Source: Patescibacteria group bacterium
GTDB taxonomy: Bacteria; Patescibacteriota; Patescibacteriia; UBA1558; UBA10009
Assembly (NCBI GenBank): GCA_041662565.1
Contig: JBAZSE010000003.1
Location: forward strand, 44,260 to 108,259
Length of the DNA stretch: 64,000 nt
Reading direction: 5' to 3'
Below, in pieces: positions 2 to 64,000 of this stretch. Every line of letters begins with the position of its first letter. Position 1 is the stretch's first letter. The notes under the pieces are model-generated. The model saw nothing but the letters and a program-made list of their open reading frames with translations, did not search any database and was not told the DNA's origin. The translations under genes and the position numbers were made by a program.

Positions 2-1201
2 AAATTCAAGGATTTAACCGAAGCAGCAATTTACGCCCAATACCCGGAAGCGGAAATTACCGAAGTTAATGATTACGTTAGTTTGATTCCCGAAGATATT
101 CATAAAGTTGAATCAGATTATGATGTTTGGGCTACCGAATTTACTTTGGCTAAACCCAGTGCCTATCCCATAAAAACCTATACGGCATTTGAGCACCAAT
201 TGGCTGAAAGTTTTATCGATCCGATGTCGGCTTTGTTGGAAGTAATGAGTAAAATCGGCCAAGGCGAGCAGCTAGGTCTTCAGCTGGTAATTACGCCGGT
301 TGACGACCATTGGAAACACAAAGGCGAAGCCATTGTTGAAGAATTGATTGGCGCCAAGGGCGCCAGCAAAAAGCATTTGGGAGATAAAATGGTAGATAGG
401 ATTTTAGGTGTTTTGGAAAAATTCAGTGAAGCCATATATAAAATGTGGGGCGATATTAAGACGGAAAAAGAATCACCCAATCCCAGTTTATACCAATTTT
501 TAACAGTCGGTCAAAAAAACGTAGTTGAAGCGATCGAAAACAAATTGGCCAAAATTTGTTTTTCCGCCAGTTTTAGGGTTTATTACCTGGCTCACAAGGA
601 TCATTTTAAAAAAAGCCGGGGTGTTAATACTGTTTTAGGCGCCATTAACCAATTTAATACCAGCAACCTTAACGCCTTTAAAAAATACGGTAAGTTAACC
701 ACTCATCGTGATTATTTTTTTGTGGAAAAACGAGTTAATCGGGTTAAAAAGAAATTATTAAAATACTACAAAACCCGTTCTCGCAAGGGCTCAACAGAAT
801 TTTATCTTTCAACCGAAGAAATCGCCACATTGTATCACTTTCCTAACATTACTGTTAAGGCCCCATTGCTCAAAAAATCCGATGTTAAAACAGCCGAACC
901 GCCAACCAGTTTGCCTATTGAATATTCCGAAACTCAAAACTTTTTTATGGCCAAAACTGCCCAGCCAAATTTAACCATTGCCGATTTGGGACATAAAAAA
1001 GACGACCCTCAAATCTTACCCGAAAAAGAAACCAAACCCGAAGAAAAATTTGTCATTACCGAAAGTTTGCCCGGTTATGATTTTGATAATGATTATTTTG
1101 AGCAGCATTTTGCCAAAAACAGAACAATAAGCAATGCAACGCCAATTAAAAAAGAATTAGACAAAACAGTGGAACCGCCGTCTAATTTACCAATTTCTTA
1201 A
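2..1201 (+). CDS. hypothetical protein, 5'-truncated at window edge (tracked ORF 83..1201 starts at an internal TTG; frame is open back to nt 2)
   Basis: No in-frame stop from nt 2. Hydrophilic and Lys/Glu-rich. C-terminal duplicated motif KT(A/V)EPP(T/S)(S/N)LPI. No family recognised by eye. Stop lies 9 nt before the next gene, suggesting co-transcription. Confidence 0.45.
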   Translation, partial: KFKDLTEAAIYAQYPEAEITEVNDYVSLIPEDIHKVESDYDVWATEFTLAKPSAYPIKTYTAFEHQLAESFIDPMSALLEVMSKIGQGEQLGLQLVITPVDDHWKHKGEAIVEELIGAKGASKKHLGDKMVDRILGVLEKFSEAIYKMWGDIKTEKESPNPSLYQFLTVGQKNVVEAIENKLAKICFSASFRVYYLAHKDHFKKSRGVNTVLGAINQFNTSNLNAFKKYGKLTTHRDYFFVEKRVNRVKKKLLKYYKTRSRKGSTEFYLSTEEIATLYHFPNITVKAPLLKKSDVKTAEPPTSLPIEYSETQNFFMAKTAQPNLTIADLGHKKDDPQILPEKETKPEEKFVITESLPGYDFDNDYFEQHFAKNRTISNATPIKKELDKTVEPPSNLPIS

Positions 1202-56699: not shown

Positions 56700-59408
56700 T
56701 TATTTCTTTAACAAAACACTGTACAAATAATCTTGATCTAACTTGACCGAAAAATCTGCTCCCTGGGGGTTGGCCTTAACCTGTTGACCGTTACTTGCGC
56801 CGGACCAAACAATGCCCCAGTTATTTGGCAAAACCAGGTGGCTACTTAGATTGGTTTGGGTAGCGCCAGACTGTTTTTGAACCAATAAACTGTAGCCGGC
56901 CTTGGCAGAAGCGCGATTGAATCCGACAAATGACAAAATTTGATTAAGCTTGCTTGATTTAAAATCAAGCTTAAACGGCAAAAGGTAAGAAAAAGTTAAG
57001 GTTTGGCTTTCTCCTGGATTTAATTGCAGCCAAGCGGCCATAACTGATTTATTCAACTCATCATAAGTAACTACCCCTCCATCAGAGCCAAAATTTTGTT
57101 GATTAGAAACAAGAGCAGATAAATCAGGATCTTCCATATAACCTTCGTAAGGTTCTTTAAACAAAGATTGATCTAAAATACTGTAACCACTGGCCTCTTG
57201 GAGTTTTGCGCCTTGGGGGACGTAAACCCTAATATAAGCATTGTTTTGAACCCGCTCAAAAACATCATTTTTATTGCCATAATGGTTTAAAGTAACGGAT
57301 ACGGTATCAATTATCGAACCGTCGGCCAAAACATGAGCGTAATGATCAATTTGCTCGCTTAACACGCTATTGGATTTTCCTCCGCCGATATTGGTGTTAA
57401 TAACGGCCAAATAATCTTGATTTGCTTGTTTAATTTCACCAGCCCAATTAAAGGCCTTAGCGCGCTGTTCCATAGCCGAATCGGTAAAATAAAGCTGAAC
57501 ATCTTTGCTGTTTAACCCCTGGCCAAAAACAGCCAGCAATCCGGGCAAAGAAGAAGCTGAACCCGAAGTTAATCGTTCCAAGACAACTTTAAACAGATCA
57601 CCAATAATCTTTTTGGGTTGATTGGAAATTTTATCGTATTCAAATTCCGTTTCATGTTGCAGGGCTAAAATAACATTTTCGGGAGTTAATACCTGATCGT
57701 ATTGGGGCAAAATTACATTGCCGGAAATTTTTAAAATCTCAGGCATTAAATTTGAATTGATTAAAATAACGCCGTCAACTGTTGGGCCACCTGATTTGTA
57801 ATAAAACCATAACAGCTTATTCATGGAAGTTGGCACATCAGGCGACCAATTGGCATCCCAGGGCATCCAAGGAGTCCCTAGTAAGTGCATTGGCTTAGGT
57901 GAGAGCACTTTTTCGCCCGAGGCCTGAAAATCCTGCTTTAAATCATACAAACCGCCTGGAGGCACCTCTAAATTTGAAATCTTGCCCGAAACAATATCAG
58001 CTAAAGCATAACTGCCCATAAAACCTCCGGTGGCCTTGCGTTCATTTGTATTTTGAAACACTAGTAAATAGCGCTTGGCTGTTTGATAACCCAAAACATC
58101 GTAAGTAAAGTTTAACAATTCATTGGCCTGATCCAAGCTGGCAAACAAAACCGGCAACTGGCTTTTAATTTCGGTAAATGCCGGTCGATAATTTTTAGGC
58201 AAAGCATGTGCATCCACTTGGTCTAAATTATTCAAGGCCTCTTTTAAATGCTCTAAGCCCATAGCCAAACCTTGTTTTAAAATTGCAAAATTTTGATCCA
58301 ACGGAGAATTAACATCGGTCGTTCCTCCGGCTAAAGCCACGGTTTGAGAAATTTCCGAACCTGCCTGGGTTAATAGCTGGCCAGCAGCGATTAAATGCTT
58401 GCCACCATTAATTTTGCCGCTTGCTACCGGAATATTTTCCAAAAAATTCAAAATTGATTGGTTGTAACTGTTTAAAACTTCGGCGGCTTGGGAAAAATAA
58501 TCGTTGGCCAAATTAAAATTAAAACCGGCTTTTTGCCAATCTTGCGCGCCAACTGCCAATAAGCCGTCTTTGACTTGCTGGATAGCCTCTTCTGTTGCGC
58601 CTAAAACTTTAACCTGGCTTTTATTAACTTGGCTGTAAATAAAATAACTGCGCATTGGTACAATAAACAGCAAAGCAATTAAGGCAAAATATAAAGTATT
58701 TTTTAAATTAAACCAATAAAAAGAAGTGGTGGTAATTGGTTGAGAACTTAATTTTTTATAAGATGGCTTGAATCGAAAAGTGGGAAAAATTCCTCGTGAA
58801 AACTTAACAAAATCCGCAACAATTTCTACAAAAGTCCGTTTCTTTAACAAGGTTGGGGCATCGAGCAGAGGTAATTCTTCAAAATTATTTTGGCCAAAAA
58901 CCAAACTCGGTTTAAACTTAGCCGGTTTGGTAAATTGGGCACTAGCGGATTTTTTAAGATTTAAAGTATGGGCGGAATTTTTGGGTAAGGCCTTAGGGCT
59001 AACGCCGGATAAACCGCCTTTTTTATCCAAAAAAACGCTAAAACTTTTTTTATTTAAGAATGATTTTAAAGAATTTTGGAGTTCCTGTCTGTGAGTCGGT
59101 ATTGATTCAACCGTTGGTTGATTTGATAAAAAATCTTTTTGAAAAGTTTGCTGGGTTTTGTTTGATTCCAAATTCTGTATTTCTTTATATATTTGCACTT
59201 GCTCATCAACTAAAAAATGATCCAAATTGAAATCAATTTTGGTTTCAACAGGTTGGTTTAAGAGCTGTTTAGCTTTCTTTTCGGCTTTGGTTCGCTGGCT
59301 TTTAACCAAACTTTTTTTAGTTTTTTGGCGAACCGTTTTTTTTACCGGTAGTTCTAAAAAATCACCCTCAAGGTTATTTTCTAGATTTGATTTTTGTTTT
59401 TCTTCCAT
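56700..59408 (-). CDS. large hypothetical membrane-anchored extracytoplasmic protein (902 aa)
   Basis: Basic N-terminal ~230 aa, one TM (LYFALIALLFIVPM), then a ~650 aa mixed alpha/beta region. Family not recognised; DUF4012-like is only a guess. Confidence 0.55.
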   Translation of the reverse strand: MEEKQKSNLENNLEGDFLELPVKKTVRQKTKKSLVKSQRTKAEKKAKQLLNQPVETKIDFNLDHFLVDEQVQIYKEIQNLESNKTQQTFQKDFLSNQPTVESIPTHRQELQNSLKSFLNKKSFSVFLDKKGGLSGVSPKALPKNSAHTLNLKKSASAQFTKPAKFKPSLVFGQNNFEELPLLDAPTLLKKRTFVEIVADFVKFSRGIFPTFRFKPSYKKLSSQPITTTSFYWFNLKNTLYFALIALLFIVPMRSYFIYSQVNKSQVKVLGATEEAIQQVKDGLLAVGAQDWQKAGFNFNLANDYFSQAAEVLNSYNQSILNFLENIPVASGKINGGKHLIAAGQLLTQAGSEISQTVALAGGTTDVNSPLDQNFAILKQGLAMGLEHLKEALNNLDQVDAHALPKNYRPAFTEIKSQLPVLFASLDQANELLNFTYDVLGYQTAKRYLLVFQNTNERKATGGFMGSYALADIVSGKISNLEVPPGGLYDLKQDFQASGEKVLSPKPMHLLGTPWMPWDANWSPDVPTSMNKLLWFYYKSGGPTVDGVILINSNLMPEILKISGNVILPQYDQVLTPENVILALQHETEFEYDKISNQPKKIIGDLFKVVLERLTSGSASSLPGLLAVFGQGLNSKDVQLYFTDSAMEQRAKAFNWAGEIKQANQDYLAVINTNIGGGKSNSVLSEQIDHYAHVLADGSIIDTVSVTLNHYGNKNDVFERVQNNAYIRVYVPQGAKLQEASGYSILDQSLFKEPYEGYMEDPDLSALVSNQQNFGSDGGVVTYDELNKSVMAAWLQLNPGESQTLTFSYLLPFKLDFKSSKLNQILSFVGFNRASAKAGYSLLVQKQSGATQTNLSSHLVLPNNWGIVWSGASNGQQVKANPQGADFSVKLDQDYLYSVLLKK

Positions 59409-59511
59409 GTTAACAAATTAAACAGTAAAATTACAAATAAATGATTCTTTTATTTGATCAAAAAGGAAAAAATTCTCCTCTCCCTTGTTGCCAATTATAA
59501 CATAATCTGGC

Positions 59512-60609
59512 CTAAAGCGACAAGTACAATGCCCTGGTTTCTTTAATCATCTTATCCCAACTAAACCTTTGGACATTTTTTAGGCCATTAGCAATGATTT
59601 GTTGGCGCAAATGCCTATCATTTAATGCGTTATTAATAACATTAAACATCTCGGATTCATTGCTTGGATCAAAATAAACAGCCCCTTGGCCTAGCACTTC
59701 AGGCAAGCATGATGAATTAGCCGAAACTACCGCTAAACCATGGGCTTGGGCCTCTACCGGCGGCAAACCAAACCCTTCATATAAAGAAGGAAAAACATAT
59801 AAAATTGCTGATTGATACAAAGCGGCAAGTTCGCTATCGGCCACAAAACCCGTAAAAATTACACTGGCATCTGCTGCAAAAGCTTGTTTAAGCTGTTGAT
59901 AAAAATAATCAATCCGGCCGGCTAAAACCAGTTGATAATTTTTACTGCTATTTATTTTTGGCCAAACTTTTAACAATTGTTCCAAATTTTTATGGGGGTA
60001 GGCCGCGCCAACATAAAACAAAAACGGCTTGGTTATTTTAAAACGACTGATATCAACGGCCTGTTGTTGGTTTGACAAAAAATAGCTTTCATAAATCACC
60101 TTAACTTTTTCGGGCTTAAGAGAAAAAGTTTTGACTAAATCGTTTTTAACAAATTCCGAAGGCGCAATAATTTTTTTTGCCTTTTTAGCCGCCTGAGCAA
60201 TAATTTTTTTATAAAACCATAATTTAATGGCATACAGCCATTTTGGCAAAGTGCTGGCGCGAGAATCGGGAAAATGATTGATAATTAAATCATGGATCGT
60301 AACTACAAATGGGCCACGATAAAAATATGGCACATTAAAATGAGGCCAATGCATTAAATCCAAATTCTCCCGAGCTATAACCCTTTGTCCAAATAATTGT
60401 TCTCGCCAACCGTACCAAGGCATATTAAAAAGAACCTTTTTGACTCTTGGCGAATCTGTTTTAAAATCATCAAAATTATCAGCGGATAAAAAAATAACAA
60501 AAGAATTTTTTTTATCATCGGTTACCAGGCCGTCAACCAATTTTTTAACATAACGGCCTATCCCCCGCTGTTTTGTGCCGTAAAAACGCGCGTCAATGCC
60601 AATACGCAT
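59512..60609 (-). CDS. family 4 glycosyltransferase
   Basis: EGFGLPPVEAQAHGLAVVSANSS motif. Confidence 0.8.
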   Translation of the reverse strand: MRIGIDARFYGTKQRGIGRYVKKLVDGLVTDDKKNSFVIFLSADNFDDFKTDSPRVKKVLFNMPWYGWREQLFGQRVIARENLDLMHWPHFNVPYFYRGPFVVTIHDLIINHFPDSRASTLPKWLYAIKLWFYKKIIAQAAKKAKKIIAPSEFVKNDLVKTFSLKPEKVKVIYESYFLSNQQQAVDISRFKITKPFLFYVGAAYPHKNLEQLLKVWPKINSSKNYQLVLAGRIDYFYQQLKQAFAADASVIFTGFVADSELAALYQSAILYVFPSLYEGFGLPPVEAQAHGLAVVSANSSCLPEVLGQGAVYFDPSNESEMFNVINNALNDRHLRQQIIANGLKNVQRFSWDKMIKETRALYLSL

Positions 60610-60628
60610 AGTTACTGATTATTAATTA

Positions 60629-61231
60629 CTAATTAAATCTTCCATTAAAAATTATTTCATCCAAATTCTTTCTGGTTCTTTCGGCTAATTCCGACTGCTT
60701 TTGTTCCGACGTTAATTTTTCCAAATCAGTCAAAGTTGCCGGGTAGCCAACGGCAATCATTGAACCGGCCTGATATTCCTGCGGATCCACACCTAATGCT
60801 GTAACTGCTTTATCTTTATCAAAACCCGCCATTTGATGAGCTACTAAACCAAGATGCACCGCTTCCAAAACTAAACTCATCGAAGCCGCTCCAGTATCGT
60901 GCAGAGCATGATAATTAGGTAAGTTGTTTTTTGTTTGATTTTTTTTGGCAAACGAAACTGCCAATAAATAGGCCTTGCCCGCCCAACCCTGGTTAAATTC
61001 TCCCATTAACGAAAATAGAATTTTAAATTTTTCGGGCTCATTTGCTGTTGCATAAACATAACGCCAGGGCTGTTCATTATTAGATGAAGGTGCCCAGCGG
61101 GCTGCTTCAAATAAACTCATTATTTTTTCATTTTCAATAGGTTGACCTGAAAAAACTCTAGGGCTCCAGCGGTTTTTAGCTAAATCGTTAATGGGATAAA
61201 CAACCTTTGCCGGTTTATTTGGATATGTCAT
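60629..61231 (-). CDS. nitroreductase-family protein
   Basis: RWSPRVF ... AARWAPSSNNEQPWRY FMN-binding motifs. Confidence 0.8.
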   Translation of the reverse strand: MTYPNKPAKVVYPINDLAKNRWSPRVFSGQPIENEKIMSLFEAARWAPSSNNEQPWRYVYATANEPEKFKILFSLMGEFNQGWAGKAYLLAVSFAKKNQTKNNLPNYHALHDTGAASMSLVLEAVHLGLVAHQMAGFDKDKAVTALGVDPQEYQAGSMIAVGYPATLTDLEKLTSEQKQSELAERTRKNLDEIIFNGRFN

Positions 61232-61252
61232 ATGGGTTTATTATTTATGTGA

Positions 61253-61383
61253 ACGAGGGTAAGTAAAATTTTTTTCGGTCCGAGCCGGGTCCCCCCGAAC
61301 GAGCCTGGGCGAGCGATTCGAGCGAGACCCTGGCGAGTTGAGGAAGGGAGGCGCAGGACAAAAAAATTTTACTTACCCGAGGG
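61253..61383. repeat. MITE-like element: 18-19 bp AT-rich terminal inverted repeats enclosing an 85-nt ~68% GC, CGAG-rich core
   Basis: GGGTAAGTAAAATTTTTTT (61256..61274) and AAAAAAATTTTACTTACCC (61360..61378) are perfect reverse complements. CGAG is present on both outer flanks. The core has no ATG in either sense. The right arm overlaps the last codons and stop of the GT4 gene. Confidence 0.45.
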
Positions 61384-62508
61384 AACATTCAAATTAAATT
61401 CTCTAAAAACTTCCAACATTTGTTTGGCTGATTGTTCCCAAGAATACTTTTTAACCTGCTCAAAACCATTGGCGATAAGTTTGCTTCTTAAATTATTATC
61501 GCTTAATGCCAAATGCATGGTTTGGGCGATTTCTTTAATATTATATGGATCAACCAAAATGGCTGCTTGAGCCAAAACCTCGGGCATTGAAGAATTAGCC
61601 GAAGCAATTACCGGCACTCCGGCTCGCATGGCTTCGAGCGGTGGAAAGCCAAAGCCCTCGTAAAATGACGGCCAAACAAATAAATCGGCTCGTTGATACA
61701 ACTCAGATTGTTGGGCGGGCGTAACATAGCCCAAAAATTTAACCCTGTTGCCCAATTTTAATTGACGGACCAGTTGAATTAGCTTGCTATACTGCCAGCC
61801 CGCCCCGCCGGCTAAAACCAAATGATACTGGGGATTATTTAACAAATGAAAAGCTTTAATAATCCCAATAATATTTTTGCGCGGTTCCAATGTGCCCAAA
61901 AATAAAATATATTTATCCGGTAAATCAAATGGTAATGTTTTAGGCAAATAATTTTTTACCTCAATCGGCCCTGGATAAATCACTTTGATTTTATCTGGAA
62001 GTAAATCGTAAGTAGTTATCAAATCATCTTTGGTACTTTGCGATACAGCTACGATTTTAGCGGCATTTTTTAATTTTTGGTTGATTCCTATGGCCTTATG
62101 CCATAAGCGCATTTTAGGCGAATAAAGTTCTGAAGTTTTGATAAACGATAAATCATGGACAGTAACTATTGTTGGGCAACCGGGCGAAACGGACCAAAAA
62201 TTTAAATTGGGAAACCAGAAAATATCAGCTCCCCCAACCAAACGATCAAGATAGGGCTTGCCTAAAAATTTGAGCGAAAAATTAAATAATTTATTGGGAA
62301 TTTTTTTGGAATAATAAGTTGTATTTTTACCTTTAACCAGCTGCTGAGCGATTTTATTTTCCTTGATTGAATTGGAAAATAAAACGTATTGGTTTTCTTG
62401 ATCCAATTCAAATAATTTTTCCAACAACTTGTAAGCGTAAAATCCAACTCCGGTTAAATTTCCTCCGCCTAATAATCCCCTTGCATCAATGGCAATTTTC
62501 ATAATCAA
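61369..62508 (-). CDS. family 4 glycosyltransferase (start likely the ATG at 62502)
   Basis: EGFGFPPLEAMRAGVPVIASANSS motif. Confidence 0.8.
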   Translation of the reverse strand: MIMKIAIDARGLLGGGNLTGVGFYAYKLLEKLFELDQENQYVLFSNSIKENKIAQQLVKGKNTTYYSKKIPNKLFNFSLKFLGKPYLDRLVGGADIFWFPNLNFWSVSPGCPTIVTVHDLSFIKTSELYSPKMRLWHKAIGINQKLKNAAKIVAVSQSTKDDLITTYDLLPDKIKVIYPGPIEVKNYLPKTLPFDLPDKYILFLGTLEPRKNIIGIIKAFHLLNNPQYHLVLAGGAGWQYSKLIQLVRQLKLGNRVKFLGYVTPAQQSELYQRADLFVWPSFYEGFGFPPLEAMRAGVPVIASANSSMPEVLAQAAILVDPYNIKEIAQTMHLALSDNNLRSKLIANGFEQVKKYSWEQSAKQMLEVFREFNLNVPSGK

Positions 62509-62552
62509 AGGTAAAAAATTCCGGTTTTAAAACAAAAAAATGTTGAAGTATG

Positions 62553-62578
62553 CAAAACCCCTATGGTAAGGGGTTTTG
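62553..62578. terminator. hairpin terminator (A-tract/U-tract type) downstream of the Cys-rich small ORF
   Basis: CAAAACCCCT-atggta-AGGGGTTTTG. Perfect 10-bp stem. Confidence 0.45.
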
Positions 62579-62593
62579 AGCCGATATTTAAGT

Positions 62594-62716
62594 TTAACTG
62601 TTGCAACCGCATTCACAGCTGGCTGAGCATTGGCAGCAGTTGGAACAATGGTCTCCGCAGGAGCATTTGTTAACATCATTTAAAGGCATATCGCATTTTG
62701 AGCAATTCATAGGCAT
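62594..62716 (-). CDS. cysteine-rich 40-aa peptide, metallothionein-like (absent from ORF track)
   Basis: Manual translation gives MPMNCSKCDMPLNDVNKCSCGDHCSNCCQCSASCECGCNS, with 11 Cys and 1 His in 40 aa arranged as CxC/CC/CxxC clusters. Consensus promoter upstream and hairpin downstream. No SD. Confidence 0.4.
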   Translation of the reverse strand: MPMNCSKCDMPLNDVNKCSCGDHCSNCCQCSASCECGCNS

Positions 62717-62743
62717 AAAATTAATTATTATTTAAGCAAGTTG

Positions 62744-62772
62744 ATTATACCAATGGCCATAAAATCTTTCAA
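62744..62772 (-). promoter_or_regulatory. consensus sigma70 promoter (TTGAAA-17-TATAAT) reading into the Cys-rich ORF
   Basis: On the minus strand, TTGAAA (62772..62767), a 17-nt spacer, then TATAAT (62749..62744). The ATG is 27 nt downstream. Confidence 0.5.
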
Positions 62773-62787
62773 GACATGGCCAGCCGA

Positions 62788-63903
62788 TTAAAGAGGTAGT
62801 TTTTTGCCCGAAAATTCCTGCCAGCTTGAAGCGGCAAAATCCTTGATTTCCCTTTCAAATCTAGAGGCGGAAAATTTTTCGGCATAATCTTTAATTTTAT
62901 AAGGGTCAAAATCTTTAAGACAAGTTTGAAAATTTATAACCGCATCGGCTAAGGCCTCCCAGGATTGTTCATCAAAAAACTTACCGCTAAAATTATCAAT
63001 AACTGTTTCCAAAGCCCCGCCTGATTTATAAGCAATAACCGGCCGGCCGCTAGCCATGGCCTCAACCGCGGCAATGCCAAAATCCTCTTCTTGCGGATGG
63101 ATAAAAGCCAAAGCCCGGCTAAGTAGCGAATTGCGTGTTTTATTATCCACTTCGCCTAAAAATTCTATATTGCTTTTGGCGATTTTTTTTAAACTGGCTT
63201 CTTCTTCTCCGCTGCCGATTATTTTTAAAGGCAAATGCAACTGGTTAAAGGCCTTAATAACAATATCCACACGCTTATAGGGCCTAAGACGGGAAACCAA
63301 AACGTAATAATCTCCTAAATCGGGATTGATTTTAAATGAGGTGGTATCAACCGGTGGATATATAACTTTGGCTTCGCGCTGATAATATTTTTTTATTCTT
63401 TTGGCCACAAACTCGGAATTGGCGATAAATTTATCCACCCGCTGGGCAGCCGTGTAATCCCAAGTTCGCAAACTGTTTAAAATAAAAGGCAGAATTTTTT
63501 TGATGATTTTGGGTTGTTTTAATTCTTCCACGTAACGATGAGCATCCGACCACAAATACCTAACCGGCGAATGGCAATAACTGATATGCAATGTGTTGGG
63601 CGCCGTTAAAATGCCCTTGGAAAAAGCCGAAGAAGAAGAAATTACAATATCGTATTCGGAAAAATCAAAACGCTCCCAGGCAATGGGCATTAAACTTAAA
63701 TACCACTTAAAGTGGCTTTTGGCAAAAGGCAACTTATCCAAAAAAGAAGTTCTAACGTCAAAATCCCTAAAAAGTTCCGTTTTTTCCGGATTATTTATTA
63801 AGGTATAAACCGGGCTTTGGGGGAAAATTTTATGCAATTCCAAAAGCACATTTTCGGCTCCGCCGATTTGAAATAAATGATCATGAGTTAAAGCTATCTT
63901 CAT
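62788..63903 (-). CDS. family 4 glycosyltransferase
   Basis: EDFGIAAVEAMASGRPVIAYKSGG motif. GGAGG SD 8 nt upstream of the ATG. Confidence 0.8.
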   Translation of the reverse strand: MKIALTHDHLFQIGGAENVLLELHKIFPQSPVYTLINNPEKTELFRDFDVRTSFLDKLPFAKSHFKWYLSLMPIAWERFDFSEYDIVISSSSAFSKGILTAPNTLHISYCHSPVRYLWSDAHRYVEELKQPKIIKKILPFILNSLRTWDYTAAQRVDKFIANSEFVAKRIKKYYQREAKVIYPPVDTTSFKINPDLGDYYVLVSRLRPYKRVDIVIKAFNQLHLPLKIIGSGEEEASLKKIAKSNIEFLGEVDNKTRNSLLSRALAFIHPQEEDFGIAAVEAMASGRPVIAYKSGGALETVIDNFSGKFFDEQSWEALADAVINFQTCLKDFDPYKIKDYAEKFSASRFEREIKDFAASSWQEFSGKKLPL

Positions 63904-64000
63904 ACTGATTGCCTCCGGCTAAAAACCGCTTTAGGGGTTCTTAGCATAATTTGCAAATCAAGCCCTAAGCTCCAATTTTCCACGTAATAAGTATCCAAGC

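Follow-up and report, generated by a model that had tools for sequence, protein, structure and literature searches.

Eleven-cysteine micro-proteins of Patescibacteria: a conserved small gene family with metallothionein-like composition

Mammalian metallothionein binds four M(II) ions via the 11 Cys of its alpha-domain, and within the bacterial SmtA/BmtA family (Pfam PF02069) SmtA holds a Zn4Cys9His2 and Pseudomonas PflQ2 a Zn3Cys9His cluster. To our knowledge, next to nothing is known of how Patescibacteria, ultra-small and mostly uncultured organisms with Cys-poor proteomes, handle metals. Metallothioneins of bacteria are few in number; by 2020, SmtA (Zn) and MymT (Cu) were the only ones which had been studied functionally, and SmtA unites a zinc-finger-like fold and a four-metal cluster in one protein (PMC7387436). 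Here we describe the gene of a cysteine-rich micro-protein encoded in a stretch of 64,000 nucleotides (nt) from a Patescibacteria group bacterium (contig JBAZSE010000003.1 of assembly GCA_041662565.1, positions 44,260 to 108,259), referred to as the window. Its open reading frame (ORF) is almost certainly a real gene and is under purifying selection. As judged from sequence, its product is likely a metal-thiolate cluster protein and would add a new sequence family, unrelated to the others, to the small metal-thiolate proteins, a polyphyletic class. The favoured statement as a whole, of which a metallothionein-like buffering role forms part, is put forward tentatively, this role being the single most likely function. 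The coding sequence is located as follows.

62594..62716, minus strand: coding sequence of the 11-Cys micro-protein, counting 40 codons when read from the first ATG, stop codon TAA at 62596..62594.

Translation of 62594..62716 on the minus strand yields MPMNCSKCDMPLNDVNKCSCGDHCSNCCQCSASCECGCNS, i.e. 40 amino acids including 11 Cys and 1 His, and is identical to the peptide reported in an earlier note on this DNA (the original prediction). Since the relatives all begin with M-[D/E/N]-C, the second ATG (62710) is preferred as start codon and is probably the true one, which reduces the protein to 38 amino acids. Cys accounts for 27.5 to 29% of the residues, while aromatic residues are missing altogether; in the 57 long ORFs of the window the Cys share is 0.69% (138 of 19867 residues). 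The GC content of the ORF, which had been described as raised, amounts indeed to 0.44 compared to 0.37 for the window and 0.31 to 0.33 for the flanking gaps. We would like to note that the envelope-glycan cluster at 56700..63903, whose five genes code for three family 4 glycosyltransferases (GT4), a nitroreductase and a DUF4012 protein, is itself extremely Cys-poor, with 4 Cys codons out of 2217.

Homologues of 39 amino acids, P0001 and P0003, were obtained from a word-indexed search and an exhaustive phmmer search, and the metagenome contig encoding P0001 displays the same gene order as the window (GT4, peptide, GT4, nitroreductase, GT4). Relatives of the upstream GT4 gene in GTDB genomes led to 80 Patescibacteria loci, the closest to the window by glycosyltransferase identity belonging to unclassified Patescibacteria metagenome-assembled genomes (MAGs; 80%, L002) and a Komeilibacteria MAG (79%, L008). 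At the equivalent site the peptide gene is present in L002, L003, L005 and L008, and the syntenic homologues comprise L001, L002, L003, L005, L008 and L084-L089. The original prediction had proposed to check the conservation of the reading frame and of the Cys positions in relatives; this check was run, and both turned out to be conserved with synonymous variation being dominant. Pairwise comparison of the codons gives a proportion of synonymous differences (pS) of 0.57 to 1.0, which means saturation, versus a proportion of non-synonymous differences (pN) of 0.15 to 0.40, the overall values being 0.85 and 0.36, respectively. At the invariant Cys positions TGC and TGT interchange freely among the relatives, and one Ser is kept across a switch from TCA to AGC. 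When all six frames were scored in 120 pairs from 16 loci, the lowest pN/pS, 0.42, was found in the sense frame, while four other frames range from 1.0 to 1.4. The antisense frame which shares the wobble position reaches 0.55, yet it contains stop codons in 10 of the 16 loci; the sense frame alone is open in every locus.

The family, gathered by two profile searches plus a DNA pattern scan, comprises 32 distinct sequences of 38 to 71 amino acids from Patescibacteria MAGs and groundwater metagenomes. The pattern scan of metagenome and viral contigs, which used a degenerate TGY pattern, was swamped by TG/TGC simple repeats; among the matches listed, at least three true members (L134, L151, L185) were found in metagenomes, and sampled hits from viral contigs contained no true member. 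Where the sources give names, these read “hypothetical protein”, and the organisms are assigned to the Patescibacteria group, Nealsonbacteria, Pacebacteria or the Parcubacteria group. In the libraries and the literature searched the family is undescribed, and so far it has been found in Patescibacteria only; a literature search found no described metallothionein or Cys-rich small protein from Patescibacteria.

All members share the pattern C-x(1,2)-C-x(9,10)-C-x-C-x(3,4)-C-x2-C-C-x-C-x3-C-x-C-x-C, and the family consensus reads M-A-E-E-K-C-K-K-C-G-M-P-L-x(5,6)-C-S-C-x(3,4)-C-[YF]-H-C-C-x-C-x3-C-S-C-G-C-K. Of the Cys, eight never vary and another three occur in at least 90% of the sequences, so that the total of 11 is odd and nearly fixed. 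At least one His is kept in 25 of the 32 members, and in L003 the conserved Cys following the CC pair is replaced by His (CCDH). Over the full length the Cys share is 15 to 29%, the lowest values belonging to two members with long acidic tails, and in the family core it is 24 to 29%. The members contain none to two aromatic residues and are mostly acidic with net charges from -27 to +1. None of them harbours a signal peptide or a membrane segment, as hydrophobic runs never exceed three residues, and these features point to cytosolic proteins. P0025 and P0027 carry extra C-terminal CxC repeats bringing their Cys number to 14-17, while P0013 and P0014 (L212-L214) end in poly-Asp/Glu tails of 25 to 35 residues. 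One short contig, L151, contains two gene copies (2..109 and 658..801); they are separated by an ORF of 129 amino acids which has no Pfam match, and an AhpC/TSA redoxin gene then follows. A further Cys-rich protein, a DUF6485 protein of 61 amino acids, is encoded in L083 (9472..9657) two genes downstream of family member P0006.

We regard these proteins as probable cytosolic metal-thiolate cluster proteins because of their ligand density, their odd Cys count, the Cys-to-His exchange, the paucity of aromatic residues and the missing export signal. With 11 conserved Cys and one His, 12 putative ligands are present within about 34 residues. This corresponds to a ligand density of 35%, which equals that of metallothionein domains and is about twice that of RING, LIM or PHD modules. 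Such a chain offers no room for a hydrophobic core, and hence its fold would be set by the bound metal ions, while the odd, nearly fixed Cys number together with the Cys-to-His exchange argues for metal ligation and not for disulfides. In the proposed mechanism transcription would begin at a strong sigma-70-type promoter belonging to the gene itself and end at an intrinsic terminator, presumably giving a monocistronic mRNA of about 185 nt, and the resulting cytosolic protein of 38 to 40 residues would fold around several metal ions. These may be arranged in about three tetrahedral Zn(II) sites, in a cluster of the M4S11 type as in the mammalian alpha-domain or in a larger Cu(I) cluster. The role of the protein would then consist in buffering or sequestering cytosolic Zn, Cd or Cu with thiol protection against oxidants as a side effect. 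As only 38 residues would have to be assembled, the protein is within reach of chemical synthesis, and metal stoichiometry as well as structure could be quickly accessible.

Metallothioneins are operationally defined by a mass below 10 kDa, a Cys content of about 15 to 35% arranged in CxC, CxxC and CC motifs, and few aromatic residues in a chain devoid of a hydrophobic core. The window peptide with its 38 to 40 residues, as well as the family with its 38 to 71, agrees with this compositional definition, and the metallothionein-like composition claimed by the original prediction thus stands. With less than 5 kDa and the same motifs the peptide resembles both the mammalian alpha-domain (M4Cys11) and the Cu metallothionein of Neurospora, and the ligand count of the former equals the 11 conserved Cys of the family. 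The CxC extensions and the tandem gene copies seen in some members may, by analogy, reflect modular growth as known from metallothioneins. Unlike the established members of this class, to which there is no sequence relationship, the family conserves the non-Cys motifs GMPL and C[YF]HCC, is predicted to form an N-terminal zinc-knuckle-like hairpin and has been found in Patescibacteria only. With SmtA/BmtA it has in common that these are small cytosolic bacterial proteins rich in Cys and His, and the structural model described below suggests a comparable hybrid of zinc finger and cluster. It differs from them in comprising 11 Cys and about one His in about 38 residues compared to 9 Cys and two to three His in about 55, in lacking the aromatic residues of SmtA and in having no divergent smtB-like repressor gene adjoining. 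From the Cu(I)-binding MymT of Mycobacterium tuberculosis the family is set apart by description, as Cys pattern and length are different. MymT, too, is a lineage-restricted small Cys-rich bacterial protein outside the SmtA family (PMC7387436).

Several observations weigh against classifying the family as metallothioneins. On the sequence level, homology to any known metallothionein appears to be absent. Neither the peptide nor the 31 members searched gave a significant match in Pfam or NCBIfam; PF00131 (eukaryotic metallothionein), PF02069 and the PADLOC anti-phage defence models were matched by none of the 31, and the insect metallothionein family PF02067 by two, with a best expectation value (E) of 0.032 which is sub-threshold and compositional. 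The eukaryotic-type resemblance that the original prediction had read from the N-terminal likeness to MDPNCSC has therefore to be given up as a matter of composition, while its statement that the peptide does not resemble SmtA/BmtA agrees with the failure of both the Pfam hidden Markov model and PDB profiles to match. Searches of the PDB with sequence profiles revealed no metallothionein, including the structures of 1JJD and PflQ2, and the sole PDB matches of the family profile are to the Hakai RING domain (E 0.69-0.9). Conserved genes of about 40 codons can thus escape family libraries, since no Pfam, NCBIfam or PDB entry matches this one. In addition, the non-Cys residues (G-M-P-L, C-[YF]-H-C-C, D-C-S-C-G-C-K) are unusually conserved for a pure metal sponge. 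An AlphaFold prediction from an alignment of six sequences was uninformative with a predicted local distance difference test score (pLDDT) of 56; with 26 sequences the best model reached 72.6 and the other four 51 to 60. This best model exhibits a zinc-knuckle hairpin (3-4/11-12), a bridge (17/24) and a helix (25-28) starting at C-x2-C. Its nearest structural neighbours, none of them significant, are without exception structural zinc modules (RING, IBR, PHD, LIM, ZZ and FYVE domains), with no metallothionein among them. We take the model as a lead on the fold of the N-terminal two-thirds and not as a finding.

The genomic surroundings can be read both ways. The family occurs in 12 different neighbourhoods; in two the gene lies beside metal-transporter and in two beside redox-defence genes (L217 and L151, see below), the rest being unrelated housekeeping genes. 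These four contexts speak for the metallothionein-like reading, but adjacency to metal transporters is confined to two of the 12, for which a rough estimate of chance is about 0.02; it is suggestive and not decisive. In L134/L216 the gene immediately follows those of a ZnuC-like ATPase and a ZnuB/AztB-like ABC-3 permease (4291..6204 in L216), and in L215 (3666..6135) it is located directly downstream of a P1B heavy-metal ATPase gene and a PLDc_N gene. The L215 ATPase scores above the cut-off for both TIGR01525 (522 bits) and the Cd/Zn subfamily TIGR01512 (426 bits). Against this reading, tblastn with query sequences of Fur, PerR, Zur, SmtB and CsoR detected none of these regulators, neither in the window nor across 817 kb from related loci.

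Some of these observations speak for the main rival explanation, which we consider rather unlikely, namely that of a structural multi-zinc finger micro-protein binding a protein or nucleic-acid partner in a regulatory or adaptor role. It would contain two or three Zn(Cys)4/Zn(Cys)3His sites, the first two perhaps cross-braced as in RING, PHD and LIM domains, and these sites would hold the chain in a rigid knot. When compared to the eight-ligand RING cross-brace pattern C-x2-C-x(9-39)-C-x(1-3)-[CH]-x(2-3)-C-x2-C-x(4-48)-C-x2-C, the N-terminal C-x2-C-G-M-P-L-x(5,6)-C-x-C-x(3,4)-C-x2-C fits the first six ligands. The C-x2-C-G knuckle in a predicted hairpin, the C-x-C and the C-x2-C at the N-terminus of a helix are shared with RING, IBR, PHD, LIM and ZZ modules as well as with archaeal one-domain zinc-finger micro-proteins. 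This explanation would account for Hakai RING being the only PDB match, for the knuckle hairpin and the helix of the AlphaFold model and for the strong conservation of non-Cys positions, and the poly-acidic tails of some members suggest a basic partner. Cross-brace and treble-clef zinc modules, however, use four to eight ligands within a longer chain, while the family offers 11 or 12, and all matches to them are below significance. Against a plain zinc finger stands, moreover, the ligand density of the metallothionein domains mentioned above; CxC repeats and tandem copies are more typical of metal sponges, and none of the 12 contexts provides a conserved neighbour as partner gene. Both explanations are not mutually exclusive, since SmtA joins a zinc-finger fold to a four-metal cluster.

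It is improbable that the protein serves to buffer the thiol redox state, as a sacrificial antioxidant or as a store of cysteine in Cys-poor organisms. Consistent with such a function, the gene precedes that of a rubrerythrin in L217, where a ZIP transporter is encoded 5 kb away, and stands beside the AhpC/TSA redoxin gene in L151. The low average Cys content of the window proteins and an upstream ORF ending in Cys codons in three relatives (see below), recalling mycobacterial polycysteine leaders, would also fit. A mere thiol store, however, would not need a spacing of 11 Cys which is invariant over saturated divergence, the Cys-to-His replacement and the retained His point to metal coordination, and neither the window nor most members possess the upstream ORF. 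A small redox protein that binds iron, be it in a rubredoxin-like Fe(Cys)4 centre or in an iron-sulphur cluster, is quite improbable. The C-x2-C-G knuckle is also that of rubredoxins, and genes of a CDGSH iron-sulphur protein (L219) and of the L217 rubrerythrin lie within a few genes. Yet no rubredoxin or ferredoxin model is matched, the sole match being to ndhI (E 0.54) in one of 31 members, and both the aromatic core of rubredoxins and the CxxCxxCxxxCP motif are lacking.

In the window the gene resides in a gap of 279 nt between two genes assigned to GT4 by Pfam, 62788..63903 and 61369..62508, followed further downstream by a nitroreductase-family gene, a third GT4 gene and a DUF4012 gene. 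This setting, together with the small size and the richness in Cys and Ser, is what could speak for a precursor of a ribosomally synthesised and post-translationally modified peptide (RiPP; sactipeptide, ranthipeptide, thiazole peptide or S-glycosylated glycocin), a secreted peptide or a toxin-like effector of an episymbiont, as the nitroreductase gene is only two genes away. In the sister loci L006 and L010, however, the same two glycosyltransferase genes are immediate neighbours and the peptide gene is missing between them; in L009 they are separated by a gap without such an ORF, in L007 the upstream glycosyltransferase gene is followed by unrelated genes, and the nitroreductase gene is missing from L084/L085. 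Given that the peptide gene is missing at this site from sister genomes and that its family is spread over 12 different neighbourhoods, its location among glycosyltransferase genes is incidental. Comparative synteny thereby rules out that it is functionally coupled to these enzymes or to the nitroreductase, and the original prediction of a gene embedded in a glycosyltransferase cluster is correct with respect to physical position, both flanks being GT4 genes, but not with respect to functional context. The 12 contexts contain no RiPP maturase (no radical-SAM, YcaO or LanM gene), no peptidase-ABC exporter, no SunS-type glycosyltransferase gene and no candidate partner gene. No precursor model of NCBIfam, SCIFF included, is matched, and the sequences show neither a leader, signal nor double-glycine motif, while conservation extends along the whole length instead of being confined to a core. 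The odd number of Cys counts against the disulfide knot of a toxin. The RiPP, secreted and toxin-like alternatives named by the original prediction are consequently disfavoured, as a maturase, protease or exporter is found in none of the 12 contexts and hydrophobic runs do not exceed three residues, and we consider this group most improbable.

A chance ORF or a non-coding RNA element, for which the shortness of the reading frame and an antisense ORF open in both the window and L001 might be cited, has a practically negligible probability, as it is refuted by the codon-substitution and six-frame results, by the Cys pattern kept in 32 homologues and by Rfam 15 covariance models which yielded for 62300..63000 a best E of 0.69, with all scores far below the gathering scores. 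The antisense ORF (62601..62735, plus strand, 44 amino acids) was rejected as a gene of its own, since in most relatives its frame is broken by stops; it arises because TGY codons read CAR/CAY on the opposite strand.

The window contains transcription signals on both sides of the gene.

62767..62772, minus strand: -35 hexamer TTGAAA, part of a promoter match of 11/12 with a 17-nt spacer.
62744..62752, minus strand: extended -10 element TGgTATAAT, with TATAAT at 62749..62744 and TG at 62752-62751.
62553..62578, minus strand: intrinsic terminator hairpin CAAAACCCCT-taccat-AGGGGTTTTG, recognised as an inverted repeat and by its fold energy.

The promoter TTGAAA-17-TGgTATAAT agrees with the consensus in 11 of 12 positions and is the sole site of this quality found by a promoter scan of 60000..64000; by our own estimate about 0.002 such sites would be expected by chance in the gap of 71 nt on the strand of the gene. 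The -35 consensus is TTGACA. The original prediction had spoken of a perfect sigma70 consensus, and this is accurate insofar as the gene has its own promoter, although the match falls short of perfection by the one deviation in the -35 hexamer. Transcription can be inferred to start near 62737. The perfect 10-bp hairpin noticed downstream of the ORF is present as described: its arms, 62578..62569 and 62562..62553, pair perfectly over 10 bp and enclose a loop of 6 nt, and the RNA fold amounts to -17.8 kcal/mol (z = -2.95 compared to shuffled sequences). Perfect 10-bp repeats of this kind are expected about 0.01 times by chance per 300 nt. The layout is typical of intrinsic terminators, with an A-tract on the 5' side, a GC stem and a U-tract (TTTT) that makes up the stem's 3' end. 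Conservation, promoter and terminator together support the earlier view of a genuine small gene with its own transcription signals. That reduced genomes keep a conserved 11-Cys protein and drive it from a near-consensus promoter makes it likely that this protein is abundant and matters to the physiology of the cell.

Between promoter and start codon the 5' untranslated region (UTR) contains a palindrome.

62719..62733: AT-rich palindrome AAATAATAATTAATT of the 5' UTR; its core, TAATNATTA, occupies 62722..62730 and precedes the second ATG by 20 nt.

Out of 16 family loci examined, six contain the exact core TAATNATTA at -20..-29, including L210 with its unrelated context, while in L082 it is located further upstream (-115/-105) in the promoter region. 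As background, it occurs in three of 638 windows upstream of long ORFs in related loci; the flanks of the palindrome within the UTR have diverged beyond alignment. Across the window eight copies of the core were found versus 5.5 expected, which means no enrichment. The core corresponds to that of the Fur, Zur and PerR boxes of Bacillus. Those three boxes have a palindromic core in common (PMC4324032). The palindrome could be a candidate operator or, equally, an AT-rich element of translation initiation. Another inverted repeat, TGGCCAT-N15-ATGGCCA (62754..62760 and 62776..62782), which brackets the -35 hexamer, was rejected as operator, as about 0.6 such repeats are expected per 300 nt and it is not conserved in the relatives.

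In L001 (2063..2128), L008 and L082 a tiny ORF is situated between the promoter and the Cys-rich gene; the window and the majority of family members have no such ORF. The peptides encoded in L001, L008 and L082, each followed by a stop codon, are MAKMNLGLVLSQAQGPGCGGC, MFKQNLGPGCGGC and MKISLLGGGGCC, which end in ..CGGC or ..GGCC, and the differences between them are in-frame (a 3-nt indel) or synonymous (TGC/TGT, GGT/GGC). The ORF could represent a leader peptide with Cys codons or a second thiol peptide. Mycobacterial polycysteine leader ORFs act as cysteine-responsive attenuators (bioRxiv 10.1101/834739). The upstream ORFs resemble these in ending in Cys codons; unlike them, they contain two Cys codons and no run, and no attenuator structure was identified.

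In the most far-reaching interpretation, the family would constitute a third family of bacterial metallothioneins beside SmtA/BmtA and MymT, related to neither and extending across the Patescibacteria, whose Cys11His protein of about 38 residues would build on a zinc-knuckle hairpin and wrap around it a cluster of either Zn3-4 or polynuclear Cu(I). The TAATNATTA palindrome would then place the gene under the control of a metal- or peroxide-sensing repressor, with the Cys-codon leader ORF adding control by cysteine supply in some lineages. In this joint form the proposal is possible but doubtful.

A GC-rich hairpin with a T run is readable 3' of the homologues in L003, L005, L008, L082, L134/L216, L210 and L212, and several homologues are preceded by a recognisable -10 element. 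Since the homologues, where readable, thus possess their own hairpin and T run and several also their own -10, the gene behaves as a self-contained unit which has been moved between neighbourhoods. As a minor observation, in L084 a gene of a Mutator-family transposase (323 amino acids, PF00872; 3495..4466, minus strand) directly follows the peptide gene; the same holds for L087 and L089, while L085 is without it. As otherwise identical contigs differ by this transposase gene, the gap behind the terminator looks like a hot spot of insertion.

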